Shown here: positions 3,544-36,288 of the stretch, piece after piece
How positions within the stretch are numbered: position 1 is the stretch's first letter
Layout of the letters: every line of letters begins with the position of its first letter
DNA from: an uncultured Verrucomicrobiota bacterium
GTDB lineage: Bacteria > Verrucomicrobiota > Verrucomicrobiia > JABWAM01
Assembly: GCA_964475835.1 (NCBI GenBank)
Contig: CAYYYL010000020.1
Coordinates: forward strand, 1 to 49,097
Reading direction: 5' to 3'
DNA length: 49,097 bases
The notes under the pieces: model-generated
The model's database searches: none
Told to the model about the DNA's origin: nothing
Seen by the model: the letters and a program-made list of their open reading frames with translations, nothing else
Program-made: the position numbers and the translations under genes

Positions 3544-5475
3544 CTAGGTTCCTACCCGGATGGGAAGAATAATCATGGGCACGCCCATCCAATGGAGTCG
3601 ACGTTGGATGGCAGTAGCCGTTTCGTTATGAAGAAGGCGGTGATACCAGTTCTCCCTCTGAAAAATCAGTTTTCCGCCAAAGAATACTGCTTTCGGAAAT
3701 TGTCGCGCAATCTGGTCACACATTCTTTCAGACTCCGCCACGGGATCCGTCCCAAGTTCCATGCGTATTTCCGAGGAAAGACCAAGTCGACCCGCCATCT
3801 CCTTGTATTTCGTCAGATCGTCACGGACTTTCGCCTGCAGGTGTTCCAGTTCGTCCCTCCCCTTGAAGGTTCCGGAATCAATCACTGCAGCCGACGCGAA
3901 AATCACCTGCCGGTACTGGCCCGGGAAAAGTTTCAAAATGGTAAGGAGGGTGTGAATGCCCAAACCGCCATAACCCGACACCAGTAAAACCGCAACGGAC
4001 TGCTTCCCGTCCAGGGCCTCATCCTCCGGCACCTTGGTCGACTCCCGGGGCAGATCCGTCAAGGTCGAAGACAGCATCCCCACCGCGCGCTGCACGGCAC
4101 GATAATGCCGGCGTATGAGAAAACAGAATCCCACCAGACTCAGTGTCACGAGCAAGGTGATCCATCCGCCTTCAGTAAATTTCTCGAAAACCACCATCGC
4201 CAGGATACCCACACAAACAAAGGACGCGCTCCCATGCACGAGCAAAGCCTTGGTACGCTTCTTTTCCCTGCGGGAAAGCCACATCCGGCACATGGCAATC
4301 TGGGAAAGTGAAAACGTGACGAAGACATTGATGGAATACATCGTCACCAGCGTGGTGATGTCGCCATGGCTGTAAAAAAGAATCCCCATGGAAGCCAGCC
4401 CCATGAGCAAGACCCCGTAGTGCATGGTGAGCTGTTCGGAGAGTGAACTGAACAAGCGCGGCAACCATCCATCGAGGGACATGTTTGCCATGACGCGGGG
4501 TCCGTCCAGAAATCCCGCCTGAGCCGCCACCATCAACAACCCGGCTTCCGCAAGCAGGGTGAGCACCACGAACCAGGGTCCGATATGGATGCGTTCCACA
4601 AGAACGGCATTCAACGTCTTGCCTTCCTCGACAGAAACCCCTGCGAGCAAGTAACAGACAAGAATCCCTCCGGCCGTGATCGCCAGCGAAGACGCCATGT
4701 AGGCCATCGTCTTCCTGGCCGTTTTCACCCTGGGTTCGCGCATCAGAAGCACTCCATTCGAAACAGCCTCGATTCCCGTGTACGTTCCCGCACCCCGTGA
4801 ATACGCATTCATGAAAATGAGAAACATCCCCCACAATCCAAGCTGATGCACATCACTTTTGAGCGCATGCACCGCATGGGTCGCCACTTCGGGAATCCGA
4901 TTGCCATAGACCACCAGGCATCCCATCAGCACCACCGCATGCGTGAGGATGAAAAGCATGAAGATCGGCACCACCAACTGCACCGATTCTTTCACACCGC
5001 GAAGATTCATCACGATCAACACCAGAATGAGAAAACATTCTGCGGGCAGTTTCCATCCATGAAGATGCAGGGGAAGAAAACTGAACACCTGATCCATCGC
5101 TGCAGCCACGGATGTCGTGATCGTGAGGACATAGTCCACCAGAAGCGCAGAACCGGAAACCACACCCCACGAGGGACCAAGCAACTTGGTCGTCACCACA
5201 TAGCCGCCGCCACCATGCGGAAAATGTTCAATGAGCAAACTGTAGGCGTACGAGATCAGAAATACGGTGGCGGCTGTGGCGAGCACGAGGAAGACAGCCA
5301 TCTGGGGGTGCCCCATGAGCGCCCGGTATGCTTCATCCGGACCATACGCCGAGGAACTCAATCCGTCCGCCCCCAAACCCACCCAGGCCAGGAAGGCCAC
5401 GAGCGAGATTTTGTGAAAAAGTCCGGGATCCTTCAGATCACGCGGTTTGCTGAGAAGAAATTGTTTGAGGGGCAT
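3544..5475 (-). CDS. APC-superfamily amino-acid/cation permease with C-terminal USP-like cytoplasmic domain
   Basis: 643 aa with about 12 predicted TM helices typical of the APC fold. A soluble C-terminal extension of roughly 170 aa follows. It is co-oriented downstream of the flotillin gene. Confidence 0.7.
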   Translation of the reverse strand: MPLKQFLLSKPRDLKDPGLFHKISLVAFLAWVGLGADGLSSSAYGPDEAYRALMGHPQMAVFLVLATAATVFLISYAYSLLIEHFPHGGGGYVVTTKLLGPSWGVVSGSALLVDYVLTITTSVAAAMDQVFSFLPLHLHGWKLPAECFLILVLIVMNLRGVKESVQLVVPIFMLFILTHAVVLMGCLVVYGNRIPEVATHAVHALKSDVHQLGLWGMFLIFMNAYSRGAGTYTGIEAVSNGVLLMREPRVKTARKTMAYMASSLAITAGGILVCYLLAGVSVEEGKTLNAVLVERIHIGPWFVVLTLLAEAGLLMVAAQAGFLDGPRVMANMSLDGWLPRLFSSLSEQLTMHYGVLLMGLASMGILFYSHGDITTLVTMYSINVFVTFSLSQIAMCRMWLSRREKKRTKALLVHGSASFVCVGILAMVVFEKFTEGGWITLLVTLSLVGFCFLIRRHYRAVQRAVGMLSSTLTDLPRESTKVPEDEALDGKQSVAVLLVSGYGGLGIHTLLTILKLFPGQYRQVIFASAAVIDSGTFKGRDELEHLQAKVRDDLTKYKEMAGRLGLSSEIRMELGTDPVAESERMCDQIARQFPKAVFFGGKLIFQRENWYHRLLHNETATAIQRRLHWMGVPMIILPIRVGT

Positions 5476-5496
5476 ATGAGTTTCAAACGATGCAGC

Positions 5497-5565
5497 TAGA
5501 GAGACCCTTCGCTTCGCTCAGGGTGACAGATCTCCGTCATTCTGAGCGAAGCGAAGAATCTCTCT
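5497..5565. repeat. Extragenic palindromic element, family A (core GTCATTCTGAGCGAAGCGAAGAATCTC)
   Basis: 24-nt arms AGAGAGACCCTTCGCTTCGCTCAG / CTGAGCGAAGCGAAGAATCTCTCT (21/24 complementary) around a 21-nt loop. The same core recurs at 38765-38885. Confidence 0.6.
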
Positions 5566-5600
5566 TTGTTTGGATGGGTTGTTTGTCTGTTTTTCCTCGA

Positions 5601-5628
5601 ATCCCGCACCTCCAAAGGAGATGCGGGA
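5601..5628 (-). terminator. Hairpin immediately after the flotillin stop (TCCCGCATCTCC-ttt-GGAGGTGCGGGA on the coding strand)
   Basis: 12-bp stem with one mismatch and a 3-nt loop. The downstream U-tract is weak. Confidence 0.4.
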
Positions 5629-5639
5629 ACGATGAGTTT

Positions 5640-7778
5640 TCAGTTTGGTTGCGCGGCAGGCGTCGCAGCGAACTGCTGTTGCATCGCCTTGATCGATTTC
5701 TGGATCTCGGCGGCGGCTTTTTCGTTTTCCTCCAGGCTCACACCCGCCTTTTCGCTGAGCATCAGTGCCATGAGCTGTTGGAAGAGCCCGTAACCCTGGG
5801 CGCCACCGCCTTCACGACCCGATTCGCCCATCACGAGCAGGCGTTCCGGCACGAGCGGCTGGACACTCTGCGCGAGTTGCTGCGCGATGAGGTTCATGGC
5901 GTAGAGCCGCGGATCACCCAGGGCACGCACTTTCTGGAGGGAGACCGCCGCCTCCGCCAGACCGATCTGTGCGGTCCGCGCCGCTTCACCCCGGCCAAGC
6001 ATCTCCTGGGATTTCGACTGACCCTGCGCGAGCTCCACATCGCGTCGGGCCAGACCCCGGGCTTCGGCCAGCTGAGCTTCACCCTGGTTGGCGGCGATTT
6101 CGATATGGATCTTCGTCTGCGTCAACTCCGCCTGCTTGTTCGCGATCGCCTGGGCTTCGTTGAGCTGCTTCAACTGAAACGCCGCCTCCTGCTGTTTGGC
6201 AAACGTCTCTTTCTGTTCCTCCGCCAGTCGGCGCAAGCGCAACTGGTCGAAGAGCTGCTCGATGGGCTCGACACCCTGGATGCCTGGCTTGGATTCGGGA
6301 CGTCCGATCATCACCGCAATGCAGTTGATGTCGTACTGCTGGAACCGGCGTCCCAGTTCCTCGGTGGCACGCGCCTGGATCTCCTCACGCTTGGTGAGCA
6401 GATCGAGCATGTGTGAGCTCTGGGCCACGTCGCGGAAATATGACGTCAGGATCGGATCCAGCGTCTGGCTGATCAACCGTCGAACGTCTCCGAAACGCTG
6501 CACCACACTCGGCGCCTTTTCATAGTCGATATGCAACACGAGCGAGAGCGGAAGCATCGGCTCATAACCGTCTGCTGTGATCAGTTCGATGCTCGTAAGA
6601 TCCTTGTCGTACTGATGTGCCTCGACCTGGCCGGTCACCCAGCGCAGGACGAAGTTGATTGTCGGAACAAGCTCCACTTTCAACGCGTAGGGATTAAGCG
6701 CGTACTTTCCGGGCGCCAGCGCCTGTTTCCAGACACCGCGCTCGTTCGCCGCGACCTGTTCCCCGTAGCGGAAGGCCTGCCCTGTCACGTCCACGCCACG
6801 CACGCCGTAGTAAGAGACCACGACGCCCACATACCCGATCGGGATGAGTGTCTTCGGTTTGATCTCCACCGTCGCGAACCAGCGATTGATAAAGAACGTA
6901 CCATCCGTGAGGACCTGCAACTGTTTGCCGCGTCGGCCACCCAGGGCCAGGAACATGTCCGGATCCTGGAAGTAGTTGTGATCTCCGCTTTCCGATGCCG
7001 GAATTTCCGGCGCGATGATTTCACCCGAGGCGATCGGAGCGCCGTCATGCACGGTCACCACACCCAGCGTATCGTTGGAGGAGAGTTGCGTCTCTCCATC
7101 CCGCTTTTCACCCGGGAGACGCGGTGCGGTGGTCACACTCTCACTCGAACCAATCAGGACGGGACGGAAACCATCCCGCTCCGCAAGCTCGGCATGCCAT
7201 TGTTGCAACTGCGCCTGCTCCTGGCCGCGGAGAAGTCCCCCATAGACACGCTCCATGGTGATCACCACGAACTGGGCAAGGTTGATCGCGTAAACGCCTT
7301 CGCGCAAAATCGCGCGCTGACGTCCGCGCTGTCCACCACCAGTGAGGAACGCACGGGCATCCTGGTAGTAGTTGCACGGCACGGTCACACCCAGGGTGTG
7401 CATGGGCTGCAACGGCTGTCCGTCACGCGCATAGACATACCCGATCTGACCTTCACCCACGGTCACGAGCGGCATCTGATGAATGCGGTACTGCCATGGG
7501 AAGAATCCCCCATGGGCACCACCACGCAGGATTTCCGCCTGAAACCCTGCTTCGCCACCGAGCGCGAGAATGCGGCCTTCGCCGAGCGACCCCCGGCTCG
7601 ACCACCACTTCTCCACCACGCCCACGCGATCGTGCGGAATATACCGCACTCCTGCCAGCCAAGCGATGATCGCCGAACCGACGCCCAGCGCCGACAGGAT
7701 CAGTCCCGTCCACGCCAAAACTCCACCAATGCCATAACCTCCAACTGCCAACATTCCCGAATAAACAGGAACATTCAT
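5640..7778 (-). CDS. Flotillin-like SPFH-domain protein (YqiK/FloT type)
   Basis: N-terminal TM helix, SPFH domain, a long Ala/Glu/Gln-rich coiled-coil (EA-repeat region) and a C-terminal tail. The ATG at 7778 is preceded by GGAGA at -10. An in-frame GTG at 7820 is an alternative start. Confidence 0.8.
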   Translation of the reverse strand: MNVPVYSGMLAVGGYGIGGVLAWTGLILSALGVGSAIIAWLAGVRYIPHDRVGVVEKWWSSRGSLGEGRILALGGEAGFQAEILRGGAHGGFFPWQYRIHQMPLVTVGEGQIGYVYARDGQPLQPMHTLGVTVPCNYYQDARAFLTGGGQRGRQRAILREGVYAINLAQFVVITMERVYGGLLRGQEQAQLQQWHAELAERDGFRPVLIGSSESVTTAPRLPGEKRDGETQLSSNDTLGVVTVHDGAPIASGEIIAPEIPASESGDHNYFQDPDMFLALGGRRGKQLQVLTDGTFFINRWFATVEIKPKTLIPIGYVGVVVSYYGVRGVDVTGQAFRYGEQVAANERGVWKQALAPGKYALNPYALKVELVPTINFVLRWVTGQVEAHQYDKDLTSIELITADGYEPMLPLSLVLHIDYEKAPSVVQRFGDVRRLISQTLDPILTSYFRDVAQSSHMLDLLTKREEIQARATEELGRRFQQYDINCIAVMIGRPESKPGIQGVEPIEQLFDQLRLRRLAEEQKETFAKQQEAAFQLKQLNEAQAIANKQAELTQTKIHIEIAANQGEAQLAEARGLARRDVELAQGQSKSQEMLGRGEAARTAQIGLAEAAVSLQKVRALGDPRLYAMNLIAQQLAQSVQPLVPERLLVMGESGREGGGAQGYGLFQQLMALMLSEKAGVSLEENEKAAAEIQKSIKAMQQQFAATPAAQPN

Positions 7779-8171
7779 ACGATTCTCCAGACACATTCCG
7801 GGCGACGTGGTTTTCGACACACCTCCCCCGTTGCGTGCATTTCTCCCGCTCCTGCAAAAGAGACAGGAGGTTAATAATGAGGACTTGGGGAATCTGAAAA
7901 GACACCCTTGCCCTTGATGATTGCTGACGAGGTTAGCTGTCGGGCTAGAGCCACCAAGTGCTCCTGGTTTTGCAGAACCATACGCCCCAATCCGTTTTCA
8001 CGGAAAATGTGGGTCCCCCGCTGATCTGTTTCGATGTCAGACCATTAAGCTGCAAAGAACTGAGAACACTATTAGCATAACGCCCTCCGGGCGCAAGCAG
8101 ATGTGGACAAGATCTACGTAAGCACTTGATATCAGGCTAAATCCATTAACATCAAATGTCCTTATTTTTAT

Positions 8172-8837
8172 TTAAAACCTGAATTTCTCCATTCTTTCGG
8201 TCCAGGTTTGGAGGGCACGTTGACGGGAGGACAGGCGGTTGTAGTTCTGATACGTCATATTTCCAAGAATGCCGAAAAGTAGAAAATCCGCATACACAGG
8301 CTGGGAATTTCCGAACAAAAACTCCGACTGACGCAAGCGTTCCTCATAGGGGTGAAGAACCCGATCGGCGAGACGGCGGATCTCGGTGCGATGCCGCCAC
8401 CATGCATCCACACATCCACGTCCGAACTTGCGTTCCTTGTGACGGATCACCATGGTCCGATCCACCAGATTGGAGATGGAACGGATGTAGGGAGGGTCCA
8501 CCAGTTTGAACGTCGCCATTTCCACCTCGTTCTCGAGATGCTGGATCACAATCGTATGCAATCCACCGAGGGATCTTGGAAAAAGTTTTCCGTGGGCGAA
8601 ATGCCGATCCACATATTGGGCTACATCCTGACTCTCCGGACCGGACTCATAGACAATCTTCCTCCCGTGAACAAGCACGGGAACCTGATAATATTCCCCC
8701 TGCGTCAGACGGATCAGCGAACTCCGATCCGTATAGGGAATATTCACACAGACGAAGGGGACTGACAGGCTTCTCAACGCCTGCGCGATGGGAATGCAAA
8801 ACGGACTATGTGCAAATTGGTGGAGCTGGATTTTCAT
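8172..8837 (-). CDS. Glutathione S-transferase family protein
   Basis: Thioredoxin-like N-terminal region (HSPFC...P...VPVL) followed by an alpha-helical C-terminal domain. Length 221 aa. Confidence 0.6.
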   Translation of the reverse strand: MKIQLHQFAHSPFCIPIAQALRSLSVPFVCVNIPYTDRSSLIRLTQGEYYQVPVLVHGRKIVYESGPESQDVAQYVDRHFAHGKLFPRSLGGLHTIVIQHLENEVEMATFKLVDPPYIRSISNLVDRTMVIRHKERKFGRGCVDAWWRHRTEIRRLADRVLHPYEERLRQSEFLFGNSQPVYADFLLFGILGNMTYQNYNRLSSRQRALQTWTERMEKFRF

Positions 8838-9028
8838 GATAGAGCGTTTTCGTCCCCCCTTTCATGAAGAACGCCGTCCGTCTTCACAACATGCAAATGA
8901 AGAGTCTGTGGGGATCAGCTTTTGCCCTCATTGGGCAGATCGCGGAGGCTTCCAAGCCACCAAAGACCAGTCGTTTTCACTCATAAAATTCGTGACCTTC
9001 CCTGCAGGAATGTTCTAACGTGGACGGA

Positions 9029-10225
9029 ATGGGTGCGATTCTTGCATTTGAAGACGGCACGGTGTTTCGCGGCGCAGCTTTTGGCGCTCGCGCAACCGCC
9101 ATGGGCGAGGTCTGCTTCAACACCTCCATGACCGGCTACCAGGAAATCCTCACCGATCCCTCCTACAAGGGACAGATCGTGACGATGACCTATCCCCTGA
9201 TCGGCAACTACGGCATCAACGAACTCGATGTCGAAAGCTCCCAACCCCACGTCAGCGGTTTTGTGGTTCGCGAAGTCTCCCGCATCGTGTCGAGCTGGCG
9301 TTCCGAAATGTCCCTCGAGGACTACCTCAAGAAGTACAAAATCCCGGGCATCCAGGGCGTCGATACACGGGCCATCACCAAGCATCTTCGCAGCCGTGGC
9401 GCCATGAAAGGCATTCTCACCACGGAATCCCTCTCCGATGCGCAAGCCGTCGAGCGCGCTCAAAAGTGGCAGGGCCTCGTCGGTGTGGACTACGTGAAGG
9501 AAGTGACCTGCAACGCCTCGTACGACTGGGATCCGAAAGATTCCCTCAGCCGCCGCTGGAGAATCCCAGGCACCAGCAACACCGTCGGAGGCGAGCCCGT
9601 TTCCGATGGGGTGGACCACGGCAAGGGACGCGAGACCTACCGTTGGAGTCTACCTCCTGTGCGCCATCGCATTGTCGCCTATGATTTCGGCATCAAACAC
9701 AACATCCTGCGCCGCCTGCGGCAACACGGCTTCGAAGTGCATGTCGTACCGGCCACCACTCCGGCTGCAGACGTCTTGAAGCACAAGCCCGAGGGCATTT
9801 TCCTTTCCAACGGTCCCGGGGATCCCTCCGTGCTCGACTACGCCGTGAAATCAGTTCGTGAATTGATCGGAAAGAAACCGATCTTCGGCATCTGTCTCGG
9901 GCATCAAATTCTGGGACAAGCCTTCGGCGCCAGCACCTTCAAACTCAAGTTCGGACATCGTGGCGGAAACCAGCCGGTGAAAAATCTCATCACCGGGAAA
10001 ATATCCATCACGTCCCAGAATCACGGCTTTGCCGTCGATCCGAAATCGCTGCCCAAGGATGTTCAGCAGACGGAAATCAATCTCAACGATCAGACCTGCG
10101 AAGGCCTCCGTCACCGCGAGCTCCCCATCTTCTCCGTCCAGTACCACCCGGAAGCCTCACCCGGGCCGCATGATGCCAGCAAACTCTTCGAGGAGTTCTC
10201 GAAGATGATCGAGAAGAAGAAATAA
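9029..10225 (+). CDS. carA: Carbamoyl-phosphate synthase small (glutaminase) subunit
   Basis: Conserved CarA N-terminus ([16 protein letters not shown]...[12 protein letters not shown]). Glutamine amidotransferase catalytic motif GICLGHQIL and a His/Glu region are present. The ATG at 9029 is preferred over the in-frame GTG at 9020. Confidence 0.9.
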
Positions 10226-10251
10226 CGCGAAGGCTGCATTGTAGAAGCCTC

Positions 10252-10296
10252 GCGCAAAGACGCAAAGAATTTCCGCTGTCTTTGCGCCTTTTAATG
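10252..10296. terminator. Bidirectional intrinsic terminator between convergent carA and the RCC1-repeat gene
   Basis: GCGCAAAGAC-(16 nt)-GTCTTTGCGC perfect 10-bp stem followed by CTTTTAATG. A second imperfect hairpin lies at 10226-10254. Confidence 0.6.
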
Positions 10297-10305
10297 AGAT
10301 GGCTT

Positions 10306-11805
10306 CTACTGCTCAGCCACTCCAAATTTGGTTAATGATCCATTCTGTCCTAAAATTCCAGCCGCGCCGGAAGTATAGGCTCCATCCGTCGTTTCAATCG
10401 TTGCTTGCCCGCATTTCAACTTCAATGAAGCGTGATCCAATGTGAAGGTTAGTGTGATCATCGGAAAACTACTAACTCCAGGCACTTCAGCAAATTTTAA
10501 TAAGATCAAATTTCCAGAATCAGCTCTGAAGATGGCGGCATAATACTTTCCGCCCTGCCTCACCATCGCTCCATAATAATAATTGGACTCCATTTGCCTC
10601 GCCAACATACCCATAAAACCACCTTCTGTCAGATTCCCCACTTCCACTTCCAGGGTCAAATTGGAGATGGGTTTGGCTTCGGTTGAACGCACGAGAGCCA
10701 CAGCAGGCGCATTATTTGAAATGGTGAGAAAAGGTCTATCATACAATTGCGAGTTCTCCACCACGCGCCAGAATCCCATGTTGGGTCCAGCAATCTCATC
10801 CCATGCACTTCCCAATGTTGAATCGCTCACAGGACGATCAAAGTTGTCCTGCAAATAAATCTCGGTTCGTCCAAACGCGCAAGGAACGCCTCCATTACCA
10901 ATCAATGACACATCGCGCAAATTGGCAGGCGGTGCCGGAGGGGGAACATTTCCACCAAAGATGCTTTGGCCGTAAAAGCCTTTTACAGTTCCGTCGGCAA
11001 GCAAAAGGTAATCCGATGTCATATCCATGACAGGAATTGAACCACGGGGAAAAACTGGATGCACCCCGGAAGCCAAATAGGCATAAGGAAGCCCGTTCGC
11101 CTGGATACCCAGAACCCAATTCATTGAATTGCTTAACATTTTTGTTAAATTACTTTTCGTCTCCATGATCCCAGTGGGCACACTAGGATCACCCGACGAT
11201 GTCAATAGGGTGCCGTCTTGCGTGAGAGCATAAAAATTTGCATAACTCATCGAGATCGAGCGAATTTTCACAAATTCCGAAGGAGTCACTACGGGAATTT
11301 TTTTGCCTTGAGCCACGATGGCGCTTCCCCAAAACACCACCGTTCCATCGCTCTTTAGAGCCATACTTGCCATGCCACCAGCAGCGACCATCGTCACGTC
11401 GCTTAAATTTGAGGGAACATCACATTGATGATTTGTATTGTCTCCCCAAGCCACCACGTGACCGTCCGATTTTAAGGCTAATGCATGATCCATCCCCACA
11501 GCCAGGGAAACCACGTGGTTTAAACCAGGAGGGACTTGTGAAGACAACCGCTTACCATAGGCGCTCACAACAGTGCCGTCAGTTCGAAGAATCAATACCC
11601 CGTTATAAGTTCCGCCGGCACTATTTTGATTGGCTGCTATCTGCTTTACATCGGTAATTTCAAAAAACGAGGAGGGAAAAGTATCGGCAAGAGGTCCCCA
11701 AGCCACCATATGCCGCGGAGGAGGTATCACGTCTGACCTCACTTCGACTGCCATTCCCAAAAAACAAAGACCACAAACTAATACAAAGGATAGATTTTTT
11801 TTCAT
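10306..11805 (-). CDS. Secreted RCC1-repeat beta-propeller protein with extra C-terminal domain
   Basis: Signal peptide (MKKNLSFVLVCGLCFLG). Repeated units of the form ...G..H..AL.SDG.V..WG.N..GQ are characteristic of RCC1/ATS1 blades. The gene is AT-richer than its neighbours. An alternative start lies at 11820. Confidence 0.65.
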   Translation of the reverse strand: MKKNLSFVLVCGLCFLGMAVEVRSDVIPPPRHMVAWGPLADTFPSSFFEITDVKQIAANQNSAGGTYNGVLILRTDGTVVSAYGKRLSSQVPPGLNHVVSLAVGMDHALALKSDGHVVAWGDNTNHQCDVPSNLSDVTMVAAGGMASMALKSDGTVVFWGSAIVAQGKKIPVVTPSEFVKIRSISMSYANFYALTQDGTLLTSSGDPSVPTGIMETKSNLTKMLSNSMNWVLGIQANGLPYAYLASGVHPVFPRGSIPVMDMTSDYLLLADGTVKGFYGQSIFGGNVPPPAPPANLRDVSLIGNGGVPCAFGRTEIYLQDNFDRPVSDSTLGSAWDEIAGPNMGFWRVVENSQLYDRPFLTISNNAPAVALVRSTEAKPISNLTLEVEVGNLTEGGFMGMLARQMESNYYYGAMVRQGGKYYAAIFRADSGNLILLKFAEVPGVSSFPMITLTFTLDHASLKLKCGQATIETTDGAYTSGAAGILGQNGSLTKFGVAEQ

Positions 11806-11993
11806 AAAAAATAATATCAAACGCCTGTTTAAAACATTGGATTTCTTGACTTTGACATCTTTAGAATCACATTTTCAACACAATTATCCTATTTAGATAG
11901 CATTGATGAGTTGTTCGTATTTATTTCACGTGCAGCTTGCGAACCACTTTGATCCACTATTGCTTCCCGCCAAAAACCCGTTAGCATGGCCCG

Positions 11994-13841
11994 ATGTGTG
12001 GCATTGTCGCATATGTAGGTACGGAACCCGCCGCGCCCCTTCTGATCGAAGGGCTTCGGCGGCTTGAATACCGCGGGTACGACTCCGCGGGCTTGAGCAC
12101 TCTCCATCGTGGAAAAATCGATACACGCAAGAAGCTTGGCCGCATCGATGTGCTCGCCTCTCTGATCCGTCACCAACCCATCGACGGCGACATTGGCATC
12201 AGCCACACCCGCTGGGCTACGCACGGGATTCCCAGCGACGAAAACTCGCATCCCCACCTCGATGCCTCCACCCGGATTGCCGTCGTGCACAACGGAGTGA
12301 TCGAAAACCATCAACCTCTCAAGGACTGGTTGATCAAGGAGGGCCACACCTTTGCCTCCGCCACCGACACCGAGGTGCTTGCTCATCTTATCGGCCAGCA
12401 CTACGAGACTGCCGGACAATTTAACGAACAGGGGCTCCTCGACGCCATTCGCGCCGCGCTTCGCCAGGTGGTCGGCACATTCGGACTTGCCGTTCTCTGC
12501 CGCGACTGCCCCGGCGTGATCATCGGAGCCCGACGTGGAAGCCCGCTCGTGGTGGGTGTGGGCAAAGGCGAAAACTTTCTCTCCAGCGATGTCAACGCCA
12601 TCGTCGCCCACACTCGGGAGGTGGTGTACCTGAGCGACAACGATCTTGCCATTCTCCACAAGGACGATTTTCGTGTCGAACGCCTCGATGATCAGGAGGC
12701 CAAGGTCGAAATCTGCACCGTGGACCACGATGCCGGTGCCTCCGAAATGGGAGACTTCCCCCACTTCATGCTGAAGGAGATTTTCGAGCAACCGCAGACG
12801 ATGCTCAATGCCATGCGTGGCCGTTTCAACCGAGACGACGCGTCCGCAACCTTTGGCGGACTGAACCTGACCAATGGAGAGCTCCGCGGTTACGATCGTG
12901 TCATCATGACCGCGTGCGGCACCTCCTGGCACGCCGCGCTCGTCGGGGAATACCTGATCGAGGAACTCGCGCGAATTCCATGTGAGGTGGAATATGCCAG
13001 TGAATTCCGCTACCGCAATCCTCCGATGGACAAGCACACGCTGGTCTTTGCCATCACCCAGTCCGGCGAAACCGCCGACACTCTCGCCGCCCTGCGGGAA
13101 GCACGCCGCAAGGGCCACATCGCCCTCGGCATCTGCAACGTCGTCGGCAGCACCATCGCGCGCGAATCGGACGGCGGCATCTATCTACGCGCCGGACCTG
13201 AAATCGGCGTTGCCTCCACCAAGGCATTCACCTCCCAGGTGACCGTTCTCGCGCTGCTGGCGCTCCACCTCGGACGCCTGCGGGAATTCTCCGCCACCCA
13301 GGGACAGCGCTTCATCCAGGAGATCGAACAGATTCCCGACAAGATTGGACAAATTTTAAAACAAAGCGAGGCCATCCGCCAGATCGCTCTGAAATACAAG
13401 GACGCCCGGGACTTCCTCTTCCTCGGCCGTCAGTTCAACTATCCCGTCGCGCTGGAGGGAGCATTGAAACTCAAAGAAATCTCCTACATCCACGCAGAAG
13501 GATATCCTGCCGCCGAAATGAAACACGGTCCCATCGCCCTCATCGATGAAAAAACCCCATCGGTCTTTCTCTGTCCCCAGGATGCGATGTATGACAAGAC
13601 CATGAGCAATCTCGAGGAAGTGAAGGCACGAAGCGGAAAGGTCATCGCCATCGCCACCGAAGGCGACAAAGAGATCCATCGTCGCGCCGACGACGTGATC
13701 TATATTCCGAAAACCATCGAGCCCCTCTACCCCCTGCTGACCAACATCCCCCTCCAGTTGCTGGCCTACCATACCGCTGTCGCCCTGGGGCGCGATGTCG
13801 ACAAGCCCCGCAATCTCGCCAAGAGCGTGACGGTGGAGTAG
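11994..13841 (+). CDS. glmS: Glutamine--fructose-6-phosphate aminotransferase
   Basis: The start MCGIVAY is the Ntn-hydrolase Cys1 motif. Two SIS domains and the C-terminal ...LAKSVTVE are present. Length 615 aa. Confidence 0.95.
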   Translation: MCGIVAYVGTEPAAPLLIEGLRRLEYRGYDSAGLSTLHRGKIDTRKKLGRIDVLASLIRHQPIDGDIGISHTRWATHGIPSDENSHPHLDASTRIAVVHNGVIENHQPLKDWLIKEGHTFASATDTEVLAHLIGQHYETAGQFNEQGLLDAIRAALRQVVGTFGLAVLCRDCPGVIIGARRGSPLVVGVGKGENFLSSDVNAIVAHTREVVYLSDNDLAILHKDDFRVERLDDQEAKVEICTVDHDAGASEMGDFPHFMLKEIFEQPQTMLNAMRGRFNRDDASATFGGLNLTNGELRGYDRVIMTACGTSWHAALVGEYLIEELARIPCEVEYASEFRYRNPPMDKHTLVFAITQSGETADTLAALREARRKGHIALGICNVVGSTIARESDGGIYLRAGPEIGVASTKAFTSQVTVLALLALHLGRLREFSATQGQRFIQEIEQIPDKIGQILKQSEAIRQIALKYKDARDFLFLGRQFNYPVALEGALKLKEISYIHAEGYPAAEMKHGPIALIDEKTPSVFLCPQDAMYDKTMSNLEEVKARSGKVIAIATEGDKEIHRRADDVIYIPKTIEPLYPLLTNIPLQLLAYHTAVALGRDVDKPRNLAKSVTVE

Positions 13842-13900
13842 TCCTGCCCTTCCTTCTTCTGTCAGGCTGCCGCGTGAGCATCTTCATGGGGAATTCTGAT

Positions 13901-13929
13901 TTGACAAAAGATATAAATATGATATCATA
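13901..13929 (+). promoter_or_regulatory. Sigma70-like promoter: -35 TTGACA (13901-13906), 16-nt spacer, -10 TATCAT (13923-13928), 27 nt upstream of the SPFH ATG
   Basis: Perfect -35 hexamer. 5/6 match in the -10 hexamer. AAGGA RBS downstream. Confidence 0.6.
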
Positions 13930-13937
13930 TTTATATC
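13910..13937. promoter_or_regulatory. Perfect 28-bp palindrome GATATAAATATGATATCATATTTATATC overlapping the -10 element (candidate operator)
   Basis: Verified base by base: symmetric about the 13923/13924 junction, 14/14 positions complementary. Confidence 0.7.
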
Positions 13938-13955
13938 ATCCTAGAAGGATTACAT

Positions 13956-14885
13956 ATGACAAAAGAACGAGAAGTTTATCCGTTGAATGGCTGGATCATG
14001 CTGGGGGTGAATCTGGCGACCATGGTGGGCTGTATCATCCTCTTCATCAAGACGATGGGCTCTGGTGAAATCTGGCCGGGGGTTGCGGTGATGGGGGAGG
14101 TCCTGGCGATTCTTTCGTTGACGGGACATTTTACCCTTCAACCCAACGAAGCCCGACTCCTGATCCTGTTCGGGTCCTACAAGGGAACCGTCAAGACAAG
14201 CGGCTTTTTCTGGGCAAATCCTTTTTATTCAAAGGGATTTTCGCTCCAGACCACACATGTGAACGGTCAGGTGAAGGTGAGTTCATCCTCCTCAAAAACG
14301 CGCATCTCCCTACGCCTGCGCAATCTCAACGTTCCGCAATTGAAGGTGAACGACAAACGTGGCAATCCGATCGAAATCGCAGCCGTGGTGGTTTGGCGGG
14401 TGCAGGACACCGCCCAGTCGGCATTCGACGTGGACGACTACGAAAGCTTCGTTCACCTGCAGAGTGAAACCGCTCTTCGTCACGTAGCGAACAGCTACGC
14501 CTACGATCAAGGGGAAGCCGATGAAATCACCCTGCTCAGCGGTGTGGAGGAGGTTTCCCTGGCTCTCAAGGCGGAGCTGGAACAACGCCTGGCGAAAGCG
14601 GGGATCACCGTCGAAGAAGTCCGCCTCACCCACCTGGCGTACGCTCCGGAAATCGCCGGCGCCATGTTGCGCCGTCAGCAGGCCGAAGCGGTCATTGCCG
14701 CCCGCCAGAAGATCGTGCTTGGCGCCGTCAGCATGGTGCAAATGGCATTGCAGGATCTCTCGGACAAAAAGGTGGTTGAACTCGACGAGGAACGCAAGGC
14801 CGCCATGGTAAGCAATCTGCTCGTCGTGCTTTGTGGCGAGCGGGACACCCAACCCGTGGTAAACACCGGGAGTCTCTACCAATAA
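13956..14885 (+). CDS. SPFH/band-7 (stomatin-prohibitin-like) membrane protein
   Basis: N-terminal TM hairpin followed by an SPFH core (QVKVSSS...[27 protein letters not shown]) and a C-terminal Ala/Glu-rich helix. AAGGA lies 7 nt before the ATG. Confidence 0.8.
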
Positions 14886-33317: not shown

Positions 33318-33650
33318 CTACTTTGTCGGTACCAAAGTATGAAACAGGTTCGCGTGACGATCCGGAATATCCGTCAGGAGAAGATCCACCTGGAACTGTC
33401 CCTTTTTCTGAGGCCGGCATTCCACAATGATCCCGCGACACTGCACCGCCTTGGAACGGCTGCCCTTTTTACTGGGCACTTGAACTTTGAGACCGACTTC
33501 CGTCATGGGCTTGAACTGCCATGCGGATGGCACGGTAATAACCGAGCGATTGACTTTCAGGGTCTGGGGCTTGAATCGAGCCTTGTCCGATCCAAAATGG
33601 ACAAGAATCGAATCAAACACTCCGGAGGAATCTTTTTTTGCGGCTTTCAT
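33318..33650 (-). CDS. Hypothetical protein (small beta-rich; PilZ-like fold not demonstrable)
   Basis: 110-aa ORF with plausible composition, divergent from the CZB gene. No diagnostic motif was recognised. Confidence 0.35.
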   Translation of the reverse strand: MKAAKKDSSGVFDSILVHFGSDKARFKPQTLKVNRSVITVPSAWQFKPMTEVGLKVQVPSKKGSRSKAVQCRGIIVECRPQKKGQFQVDLLLTDIPDRHANLFHTLVPTK

Positions 33651-33819
33651 GGGACATTTTACTAAAGAAACATACCATACTAGTACGCACTGTCAAATGC
33701 CCCCCCGGCAGACCTTTTGTAACTCCAAGAACAGGAAGGGTTAACAATTTAAGGAAAAATTTATTTTGCTGTTAGTCTGATCTTTCGTCAAAAGAGACCA
33801 GCCTTTAGAAGGAGACACC

Positions 33820-34173
33820 ATGGACCTGAACCAGGCGCTTCAACATCATTCCGAATGGAAGATGAAATTTCGTTCAGCCATTTCTCAAAAGAAGACCCTG
33901 GATGCCTCCATTATTGAAAAGGACGATTGCTGTGAACTTGGAAAATGGCTGCATGGTGACGGGAAATCCAAATATTCCCACCTGGCCAGCTTTTCGGATT
34001 GTGTAGCCAAACACGCAGCATTTCATCGGGAAGCCGGCATGGTCGCCGGGCTCATCAATTCGGAAAATTTTTCCGAAGCTGAAACCATGGTCAATTCGAG
34101 TTCAAGCTTCACCTCCGCCTCCAACGATGTGGCCATGGCCATCATCCTCCTCAAAAAGGAAGCGAACCTTTAG
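33820..34173 (+). CDS. Standalone CZB (chemoreceptor zinc-binding) domain protein
   Basis: Fits the CZB signature Hxx[W]-x24-Cx[L]Gx[W]-x21-HxxxH: HSEW...CELGKW...HAAFH. Strong RBS GAAGGAGAcaccATG. Confidence 0.7.
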   Translation: MDLNQALQHHSEWKMKFRSAISQKKTLDASIIEKDDCCELGKWLHGDGKSKYSHLASFSDCVAKHAAFHREAGMVAGLINSENFSEAETMVNSSSSFTSASNDVAMAIILLKKEANL

Positions 34174-34220
34174 CAAACCGGGCTAAAATTGAACCCGACC
34201 GTCGGGACGGGCGAGAAGAT

Positions 34221-35264
34221 TTACCACTCCAGAATCGTGGCGCCCCAGGTCAGACCCGCTCCGAACGCGATCACCAGAATCTTGTCCCCGCGCTTGAACC
34301 GGCCGTCGCGATGGCCCTCATCCAGGGCGACTGCCGCGGAGGCTGCGGACATGTTTCCGTAGCGGTGGAGGTTGATGTAAAATTTTTCGATGGGAACTTC
34401 GAGACGTTCCGCAAGCCCCTCGATGATCCGCATGTTTGCCTGATGGGGGATGATGCAGACAAGATCCCCGGCCTTCAAACCGGCCGATTCAAGCGCTGCG
34501 TTGGCTGCCTGTTGCATCGCAAGAATGGCATGCTTGTAGACCTCGCGTCCGGACATCTTCAGGAAGTGCATCCCGGAGTTCACACTCTCCACCGTGGACG
34601 GGGTTTTGGCTCCACCGCCCGGCATGCAGAGAAGTTCCCCGTGTTTGCCATTCGATCCAAGGGACGCGGAGAGGATGCCTTTGCTGTCAGGGCGATGCTG
34701 AAGCACGGCGGCACCTGCCCCATCTCCAAAGAGGACGCAGGTATTGCGATCCTTCCAATCCACAATGGAGGAAAGCTTTTCAGCAGCGACCACAAGCACG
34801 GTCTGATAGGTGCCGGACATCACGAACTGACGGGCTATTTCGATGGCGAAGATGAATCCGGAGCACGCGGCTTCGATATCAAAACAGGCCGCGCGTTGAG
34901 CCCCGATCTTTGCCTGCACGAGCGCTGCGGTGCAGGGAAAGGGCATGTCCGGCGTGATGGTGGCACAGACGATCAAATCGATATCCGCAGCGGTGACCCC
35001 GGCGCTCTCCATGGCACGACGGGCCGCACCCGCACCCAGATCAGAGGTGCATTCCGCGGCGGCGGCGATGCGTCGCTCGCGAATTCCGGTGCGTGTGGTG
35101 ATCCATTCATCGCTCGTTTCCACCATTTTTTCAAGATCCCCATTGGAAAGAATCTTTTCGGGCAGATAGGAACCCGTACCGACGATCGAAACCGTACGCA
35201 GACCGGTGGATTGGGGGGACTTGACTGCAGCCCTTGGCTGCGTCTGGGACGCGGTGGGGGACAT
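34221..35264 (-). CDS. fabH: Beta-ketoacyl-ACP synthase III
   Basis: GTGSYLP near the N-terminus. Active-site Cys in ...FDIEAACSGFIFA. C-terminal ...GAGLTWGA. The start is set at the ATG 4 nt after the plsX stop. Confidence 0.9.
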   Translation of the reverse strand: MSPTASQTQPRAAVKSPQSTGLRTVSIVGTGSYLPEKILSNGDLEKMVETSDEWITTRTGIRERRIAAAAECTSDLGAGAARRAMESAGVTAADIDLIVCATITPDMPFPCTAALVQAKIGAQRAACFDIEAACSGFIFAIEIARQFVMSGTYQTVLVVAAEKLSSIVDWKDRNTCVLFGDGAGAAVLQHRPDSKGILSASLGSNGKHGELLCMPGGGAKTPSTVESVNSGMHFLKMSGREVYKHAILAMQQAANAALESAGLKAGDLVCIIPHQANMRIIEGLAERLEVPIEKFYINLHRYGNMSAASAAVALDEGHRDGRFKRGDKILVIAFGAGLTWGATILEW

Positions 35265-35268
35265 CGGA

Positions 35269-36288
35269 TTATGCCTTGGCGAGCACCCGTTCGTTGTTGA
35301 TCCGAACCTCATCAACAATGTGGTGGGTCAGTTCATTGTTCACGGATTCACGCGCCACACGGATCGCGTTGCAGATCGCCTTCGGGGAACTTGCGCCATG
35401 CGCAATGATGCACACTCCATTGATCCCCAGAAGAGGCGCTCCCCCGTATTCCGCATAGTCGGTCTTGCGACGGATGGCGCGGAAGGCATTCTGGGCAAGA
35501 AATCCACCCGCCTTGCGAACCGGCGTCCGGGTAAGTTCCGTTTTCAACCACCGGAACAACCCACTCGCCAGACTCTCCGCAGTCTTCAATATCACATTCC
35601 CCACAAACCCATCGCACACCACCACCTCCACCTTGCCTTCGAAGGTGTCGTGCCCCTCCACGTTGCCGACAAAATTCAGATTCGAGGCTTCCAGAAGTTT
35701 GAACGTCTCCTTGGTCAGGTCATTCCCCTTCACATCCTCCTCCCCAATACTCATGAGACCCACCCGCGGGTTCTCGTATCCCAGGACGTACTTAGAGTAG
35801 AGGCTGCCCATGATGCCGTAGTGTAGTAGGTGATTGGGACGGGAATCGATGTTCGCACCGGCATCGATCAGGACAAAAAGGTTGTGCTCGGTGGGCATCA
35901 CGGTGGCAATGCCGGGTCGCTCCACCCCCTCAACAGGACGCAGTTTCAAGGTGGTGGCGGCCACCGCAGCGCCGGTATGGCCTGCGGAAACGATGGCATC
36001 GGCAACGCCCTCCTTCACCAGATCCACGGCGCGGCTGATGGAGGAATCCTTCTTGCGACGAACCCCCTCCACGGCGGAATCCGACATTTCCACAATCTGA
36101 GTGGTATGAACGAATTTGATCCGCGGATCGATGGGTCCGTGTCGCTGCACCTCGGCCCGGACGGCGACCTCGTCCCCCAAAAGGAAGAGCTCCTGAACGT
36201 CCTCGTATTTTCGCAGTGCCAGGACGGCACCCTCGGCCACCGCTGCGGGGGCGAAATCACCCCCCATGGCATCCACTGCGATTTTCAT
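35269..36288 (-). CDS. plsX: Phosphate acyltransferase
   Basis: MKIAVDAMGGDFAP N-terminus with a full-length collinear PlsX pattern. Confidence 0.9.
   Translation of the reverse strand: MKIAVDAMGGDFAPAAVAEGAVLALRKYEDVQELFLLGDEVAVRAEVQRHGPIDPRIKFVHTTQIVEMSDSAVEGVRRKKDSSISRAVDLVKEGVADAIVSAGHTGAAVAATTLKLRPVEGVERPGIATVMPTEHNLFVLIDAGANIDSRPNHLLHYGIMGSLYSKYVLGYENPRVGLMSIGEEDVKGNDLTKETFKLLEASNLNFVGNVEGHDTFEGKVEVVVCDGFVGNVILKTAESLASGLFRWLKTELTRTPVRKAGGFLAQNAFRAIRRKTDYAEYGGAPLLGINGVCIIAHGASSPKAICNAIRVARESVNNELTHHIVDEVRINNERVLAKA

Follow-up and report, generated by a model that had tools for sequence, protein, structure and literature searches.

A stand-alone CZB protein, very probably inserted as a single gene into a Verrucomicrobiota genome, and its chemoreceptor-fused relatives

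Introduction

What can a CZB domain do when no output domain is attached to it? The question is raised by an open reading frame in a 49,097-nucleotide stretch of DNA from an uncultured Verrucomicrobiota bacterium (contig CAYYYL010000020.1), here called the window. The initial annotation described the product as a lone CZB domain of the kind that is fused to a chemoreceptor in TlpD and to a diguanylate cyclase in DgcZ, and proposed that it could act in trans on a partner protein. CZB domains are being recast as environmental redox sensors that work via the labile zinc pool (10.64898/2026.07.03.735341). The annotation also set the free domain apart from the normally fused forms, but a CZB domain that stands alone is nothing exceptional. 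'CZB only' proteins make up 27.1% of 10,140 catalogued CZB sequences, some of them possibly truncated, as the authors of the catalogue warn (Perkins 2021, mBio, PMC8262984), and the 117-residue family described here is widespread. The window protein belongs to a known, common and uncharacterised architecture class, and nothing about it is categorically new. About a quarter of CZB proteins are stand-alone and form a class without known function, and our literature search found no published experimental test of any of them. The family analysis provides a concrete and testable lead. Its main interest lies in a link between fused and free forms and in an insertion of the gene across phyla. Our overall reading, to which we assign a probability of roughly 0.45, is that the protein is a free Zn2+/redox-sensing module that acts by protein contact, probably on chemoreceptor arrays.

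A complete CZB domain without an output domain

The 117-residue frame lies on the + strand at 33820..34173, including the stop codon. It carries the signature that had been read from it exactly: HSEW at residues 10-13, a spacer of 24 residues, CELGKW at 38-43, a spacer of 21 residues, and HAAFH at 65-69. The CZB profile (PF13682), whose gathering score is 29.4 bits, matches residues 10-73 with 42.1 bits (E = 1.1e-10) and is the sole Pfam match. The protein, as had been claimed, has no output domain; it consists of one CZB domain, in which the four ligand residues are all present, and it is complete rather than truncated. In an alignment of the family profile with 3t9o, the predicted zinc ligands H10 (codon 33847..33849, +), C38 (33931..33933, +), and H65 and H69 (codons of HAAFH, 34012..34026, +) fall on H22, C52, H79 and H83 of DgcZ. 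The ligands and their spacing, on which the annotation had rested, hold up in this alignment. All four are unchanged throughout 83 family domains and nearly invariant in about 150 more distant representatives. The seven-residue Cys motif of CZB domains, C-x-L/F-G-K/R-W-L/I (Perkins 2021, PMC8262984), is present as CELGKWL at residues 38-44. It has the C-x-L-G-K-W-L form of the 'CZB only' subgroup, whose second position, as that paper reports, is not Arg; the window protein has Glu there.

An AlphaFold2 model based on 34 family sequences (mean pLDDT 96.4) folds residues 3-114 into one helical bundle, a four-helix fold like that of the DgcZ CZB domain. The bundle fold alone is not diagnostic, because other four-helix sensor domains score similarly. 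[quoted passage not shown] It shares the four ligands and their spacing pattern, and the whole of the 117 residues corresponds to the whole DgcZ bundle. Sequence identity to DgcZ amounts to about 15%. The window protein differs in lacking a GGDEF domain, and where it has Cys37 and Cys61, DgcZ has Leu and Met. The NCBIfam equivalog model of DgcZ (PRK09894) gives 32.9 bits against a cutoff of 256 and covers the CZB part only. GGDEF is absent from the protein and from the 49-kb window, which sets it apart from DgcZ-like diguanylate cyclases. With chemoreceptors of the TlpD/McpA type the protein shares the 3His/1Cys zinc site and a proposed Zn2+/redox read-out; it differs from them in having no MCP signalling domain, and MCPsignal matches neither the protein nor any other part of the window. 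Sequence and model together make it almost certain that the 117-residue product is a CZB-only protein with a zinc site. From the conserved ligands we infer that this site would bind Zn2+ and that Cys38, the predicted zinc-thiolate ligand, would be redox-reactive.

Two further sequence features were considered and rejected as functional elements. The first was a disulfide switch between Cys37, which directly precedes Cys38 (codon 33928-33930, +) and is specific to the clade, and Cys61. The two cysteines occur in 77 and 80 of the 83 close family members, but only in about 60% and 53% of the top 150 representatives, and the switch does not appear to be essential. The second was a C-terminal docking motif, LKKEA. 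Since fused forms keep LKK as well, as part of the last helix, this element is probably structural.

The gene and its immediate surroundings

The gene has the strong ribosome-binding site that had been claimed for it, a Shine-Dalgarno sequence AGGAG at 33810-33814 (+), read from the sequence, 5 nt 5' of the ATG. It is convergent with fabH, whose stop codon lies at 34221-34223 on the - strand, and divergent from a 110-residue frame at 33318..33650 (-), with the two starts 169 bp apart. Gene geometry agrees with the proposal of a separate transcription unit, as does a GC-rich hairpin at 34194..34206 between the two convergent stop codons. This hairpin, terminator-like CCCGACGGTCGGG with a T-run on the - strand, is a possible bidirectional terminator; the assignment is tentative because the hairpin is not conserved in a relative with 92% identity (contig L089). 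A search of the + strand found no sigma-70-like promoter for the CZB gene.

The fabH gene (34221..35264, -; Pfam ACP_syn_III) belongs to the host backbone, as the last gene of an rpmF-plsX-fabH unit, and is not part of the CZB system. The mechanically called fabH frame at 34221-35318 (-) opens with TTG and encodes 365 residues; public gene calls and homologues favour an internal ATG and a product of 347 residues.

The 110-residue protein also belongs to the host backbone. Its AlphaFold2 model (pLDDT 76) is a beta-barrel with a PilZ-like fold, for which Foldseek ranks the PilZ domains of MotI/DgrA and Alg44 highest (TM 0.62-0.66). The protein has no Pfam match, and neither of the c-di-GMP motifs RxxxR and D/NxSxxG is visible in its family alignment. 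The family is small, with 18 clusters of which the sole named one is from Verrucomicrobia, and seems confined to that group. Its genes always close the rpmF-plsX-fabH unit, directly behind fabH (contigs L086, 6001-6339; L087, 6001-6315; L088, 3412-3726).

A very probable single-gene insertion

Pairwise DNA alignment with L086, the closest relative without a CZB gene, reveals an extra segment of about 483 bp at 33738..34220 (bounds within about 10 bp) that is absent from that contig. The segment begins immediately after the fabH stop codon and contains the CZB gene only, with an 82-bp leader and a 47-bp trailer. Its GC content is 0.42-0.50, as opposed to 0.55-0.63 on both flanks. In the related contigs L086, L087 and L088 the order coaD-yceD-(rpmF)-plsX-fabH-[110 aa] runs on one strand without a CZB gene. 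The named FabH homologues are all from Verrucomicrobia/Verrucomicrobiota, and the nearest named CZB relatives are mostly proteobacterial (Cellvibrio, Undibacterium, Nitrosomonas, Methylobacter and similar). By these comparisons, the CZB gene is very probably a horizontal single-gene insertion into the intergenic region between fabH and the PilZ-like gene of a Verrucomicrobiota genome. A mobile-element signature was sought at the insertion ends, but neither a target-site duplication nor terminal inverted repeats turned up, apart from short matches at chance level. A plasmid search gave one weak match (43% identity, Diaphorobacter), and a phage search gave none.

The insertion bears directly on the divergent 110-residue gene, which had been suggested as a conserved partner. 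That gene follows fabH without a CZB gene in the three related contigs, and no homologue of it, or of any other window neighbour, occurs beside other members of the CZB family. It is not a conserved partner, because the CZB gene is an insertion that these contigs lack. It also has a promoter-like element of its own, TTGACA-16-TATGTT at 33669..33696 (-), which lies outside the insertion and is conserved in L086; its CATTTGACAG and AGTATGGTATG blocks are invariant in the L086 alignment (A2). A partnership in which the CZB protein regulates the PilZ-like protein, or is read by it, would tie the pair to c-di-GMP signalling. In its favour, the two genes are divergent neighbours with 169 bp between them, the model resembles the PilZ domains named above, and a CZB domain controls a diguanylate cyclase in E. 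coli (PMC8262984). This idea is largely refuted by synteny. It is weakened further by the separate promoter-like element, the missing c-di-GMP motifs and the middling confidence of the 110-residue model, and we regard it as extremely improbable.

The metagenomic contig L089 contains the same arrangement, with the CZB gene convergent with fabH, at 92.5% nucleotide identity. The 18 differences from the window gene comprise 9 synonymous and 9 non-synonymous codons (dN/dS ~0.25), and no replacement affects a position that is invariant in the family alignment (A1). These numbers are small, and they suggest that the gene is retained under purifying selection in the sister lineage. This retention is relevant to the notion that the gene is a recently acquired passenger without a role in its host, or the decaying remnant of a larger gene. 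The recent insertion, its foreign composition and the undetected + strand promoter would fit such a gene, as would two substitutions in the window protein, Ala for the near-invariant Gly105 and Met for Lys74. However, the frame is intact at the exact family length, all invariant residues are present, and the Shine-Dalgarno sequence is strong. The insertion is also present in a lineage 7.5% diverged in DNA, and the pattern of replacements is the one just described. Upstream, an in-frame stop lies only 13 codons from the start, and domain remnants are absent. A passenger or remnant is very doubtful in view of these properties.

A widespread family of fixed length

In a search of 5.8 billion proteins, 183 homologues reached E <= 1e-3 (best 1e-63). 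Their named sources include Cellvibrio, Undibacterium, Nitrosomonas, Methylosarcina, Sulfuriferula and Zixibacteria. Among the best 120 of the 183, identity to the window protein is 50-64%, apart from one homologue at 92%, and 109 are exactly 117 residues long. A profile search of 1.84 billion representatives clustered at 50% identity gave 3687 matches at E <= 1e-3, of which 132 reached E <= 1e-30. The top 150 representatives comprise 70 stand-alone proteins (<=135 residues), 30 proteins of >=400 residues in which the module is C-terminal, and 48 of intermediate length, many of which are probably truncated. Since 117 residues is the length of most of the best homologues and nearly half of the top representatives are stand-alone, this length is the native full length of the protein. 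The concern of the initial annotation that the frame might be a fragment of a larger, disrupted gene is settled by this conservation; a fragment or pseudogene is ruled out by the fixed length of the homologues together with the intact invariant residues.

A scan of GTDB, with one genome per GTDB species, located 306 loci of the 117-residue family, mostly in Beta- and Gammaproteobacteria and with few in other phyla. Carriers include Methylobacter, Methylomonas, Undibacterium, Cellvibrio, Nitrosomonas, Gallionella, Sideroxydans and Thiobacillus. The family lives mainly in proteobacteria of these two classes such as oxidisers of methane, ammonia, iron and sulfur, which typically inhabit oxic-anoxic interfaces. 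Several genomes contain two copies. Undibacterium jejuense, Methylobacter tundripaludum and a Cellvibrio MAG have them at different loci, and in Burkholderiales bacterium 70-64 (L027) two stand-alone copies lie a few kb apart. Perkins 2021 gives counts for the 'CZB only' subgroup; what differs here is that one orthologous family of fixed length is delimited, which exchanges with receptor-fused forms and has moved into Verrucomicrobiota.

Free and receptor-fused forms

The initial annotation had asked whether orthologues are always unfused, and they are not. Of the 80 genome loci retrieved, 25 encode a membrane chemoreceptor of about 840-1670 residues with the module at its C-terminus (some of these frames end at a contig end). 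All of these receptors are from Methylococcales, with members in Methylobacter, Methylomonas and Methylomicrobium, and all five long representatives tested are MCPs. Hemerythrin and Redoxin fusions exist as well. Two CZB-hemerythrin proteins (262-263 aa), a CZB-Redoxin/AhpC-TSA protein (593 aa) and a tandem double CZB protein (281 aa) were observed (P0141, P0149, P0259 and P0140).

Free and receptor-tethered modules are close homologues: over residues 1-114/117, the fused module and the window protein share 53-61% identity. In a neighbour-joining tree of the 117 residues, computed without branch support, the fused forms make up two separate clades among stand-alone ones. Every fused case has a linker of 23-39 residues, 68-87% of them polar or small, between the receptor signalling domain and the CZB module. 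In TlpD, by contrast, the coiled coil of the receptor runs on into the first CZB helix (10.64898/2026.01.16.699579), and the low-complexity linker of the fused relatives is more compatible with a free-standing CZB domain than the TlpD arrangement is. Because the TlpD domain is helically continuous with its receptor, the precedent for signalling by a loosely tethered or free CZB domain is solely a genomic one.

The Methylobacter fusions have a tail of 20-28 residues after the module, which ends in a DEWEEF pentapeptide. Their layout of receptor, 34-39-residue linker, CZB domain, tail and a pentapeptide of the CheR/CheB-docking type places the CZB domain in a flexible C-terminal receptor tail (L019, 5420-8554; L007, 5100-7616; L017, 431-3061; and 17 other loci of the Methylobacter type). 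Methylomonas sp. TEB (L041) has two adjacent giant chemoreceptors of 1669 and 1273 residues (5345-10354 and 10632-14453), with about 5-8 near-identical tandem repeats of a unit of about 70 residues (AVEGRLATRADA...NTIKNNLN). A C-terminal CZB domain is present on the first of the two only.

Gene neighbourhoods of free CZB genes

A single universal neighbour of the stand-alone genes was sought and rejected: 119 Pfam families are represented among 105 immediate-neighbour ORFs, and the commonest occurs 5 times. Motility is the first recurrent context. Two Cellvibrionaceae loci have the order cheA-cheW-MCP-MCP-CZB-cheR, with a gap of 24 nt ahead of the CZB gene, and Undibacterium has an MCP-CZB gene pair. 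The orders fliQ-fliR-CZB and flgK-flgL-CZB occur in three loci each. The 105 immediate neighbours include 4 MCPsignal, 3 FliR, 3 FlgL, 2 CheB, 2 CheR and 2 FliT, and a che or flagellar gene lies <=1.5 kb away in 11 of 57 stand-alone loci. With about eight independent contexts in about 80 neighbour slots, and with che and flagellar genes taken by our own estimate as about 2% of a genome, the Poisson tail probability of these neighbours is ~3e-4; shared ancestry among the loci makes this figure a rough one. Motility and signalling genes are missing from the vicinity of about three quarters of the stand-alone loci.

Sulfur and redox metabolism is the second recurrent context. Three Methylobacter loci have MBL-Rhodanese, CZB, Pyr_redox_2 (SQR-like) and SulP genes in series. 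In these loci (L036, 8386-11931; L059, 2205-5093; L084, 4423-7288) the free CZB gene lies between the persulfide-dioxygenase-like MBL-Rhodanese gene and the Pyr_redox_2 gene, with the SulP/STAS permease near by, an arrangement that looks like a sulfide-oxidation cluster. A Rhodanese-CZB pair occurs in Nitrosomonas, in a Burkholderiales genome and in L090, where the order is ArsR-YgaP-CMD-Rhodanese-CZB. Rhodanese is found 4 times and Lactamase_B 3 times among the 105 immediate neighbours, and Fer2/FAD oxidoreductases stand beside the CZB gene in five loci. One free CZB gene adjoins an ArsR-type regulator and an RND efflux pump, and another adjoins rubrerythrin and rubredoxin genes. On the metagenomic contig L092 (7028-8101), the free CZB gene has a cbb3 oxidase operon (ccoNOQP) on one side and a plasmid-mobilisation gene (Mob_Pre) on the other, which hints at an occasional association with mobile DNA.

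The second context could mean that the protein is an accessory of reactive-sulfur metabolism. Its zinc-cysteine site would then sense or react with sulfide or persulfide, or sense a loss of zinc brought about by sulfide, and the protein would work together with rhodanese, persulfide dioxygenase and SQR. The Methylobacter series, the three Rhodanese-CZB cases and the Rhodanese and Lactamase_B counts speak for such a role. Yet the context occurs in only about 10% of the loci, none of these genes is near the window copy, and the idea is compatible with the sensor reading rather than an alternative to it. As a separate explanation it is quite improbable.

The neighbourhoods also allow for a small protein that needs no partner at all and handles zinc or oxidants autonomously; it would store or buffer Zn2+ with high affinity, or sacrifice its thiolate to oxidants. 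Such a role would suit a single gene that moved without a partner into a distant phylum and was kept there. It would agree with the absence of a signalling neighbour at most loci, with the placement beside the ArsR-type regulator and efflux pump or beside rubrerythrin and rubredoxin, and with the existence of Redoxin/AhpC-TSA and hemerythrin fusions. One metal site per 117 residues would make a poor buffer, however, and the characterised CZB domains are all regulators. The recurrent fusion to chemoreceptors and the placement in che and flagellar operons are what would be expected of a sensor. We consider autonomous handling unlikely.

A possible mode of action

If the sensor reading is correct, the four-helix bundle would hold one Zn2+ via His10, Cys38, His65 and His69. 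As TlpD, DgcZ and McpA suggest by analogy, the bundle would change its conformation when the 3His/1Cys site gains or loses Zn2+, and either the labile zinc pool or oxidation of the Cys thiolate would determine how far the site is filled. Mechanistic precedent for CZB sensing exists (PMC8262984, 10.64898/2026.07.03.735341, 10.64898/2026.01.16.699579). Since the protein has no output domain, the state of the bundle would have to be passed on by contact with another protein. The likeliest target would be a chemoreceptor array or the adaptation enzymes; the array is the best candidate because of the fusion and fission of the module with chemoreceptor tethers and its contexts in che and flagellar operons. 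The action in trans that had been proposed at the outset is a reasonable reading, which we infer, as we do the identity of the partner. CheW-CZB proteins and other small CZB chemotaxis adaptors resemble this scheme in that a CZB domain feeds a chemosensory array via a non-receptor protein. They differ in that the window protein has no CheW domain, and its docking would be non-covalent.

Several observations weigh against the array. A regulator that depends on a specific partner is an unlikely candidate for successful single-gene transfer between phyla. The 49-kb window contains no MCP, CheA/W/R, flagellar or GGDEF gene, and the three quarters of stand-alone loci noted above count against the array as well. 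The second recurrent context, with its rhodanese, persulfide-dioxygenase-like MBL, SQR-like oxidoreductase, ArsR and Fer2/FAD oxidoreductases, points elsewhere. The insertion across phyla suggests that the module either works alone or uses a universally conserved partner. A more specific version of the sensor reading, tentative and rather unlikely as a whole, would make the 117-residue family a portable 'plug-in' sensor. In this version, a diffusible Zn2+/redox bundle would dock non-covalently on the chemoreceptor array or on the CheR/CheB tether, and it would be interchangeable with the version tethered to the receptor C-terminus. The target of such a sensor would be universal, and therefore transfer of the single gene, even between phyla, could confer redox or oxygen taxis.

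Other features of the window

The surroundings of the CZB gene in the window include glycosyltransferases, MscS, fatty-acid synthesis genes, coaD and RecD2. An Rfam scan for riboswitches and small RNAs near the CZB gene returned only an unrelated c-di-AMP riboswitch in the window. This element (RF00379) lies at 7907-8061 on the - strand and is a full-length match with 60.8 bits against a gathering score of 38. Downstream of it lie the gene for a 726-residue SPFH/Band 7 protein (5640..7820, -) and then an amino-acid permease gene (3544..5475, -).
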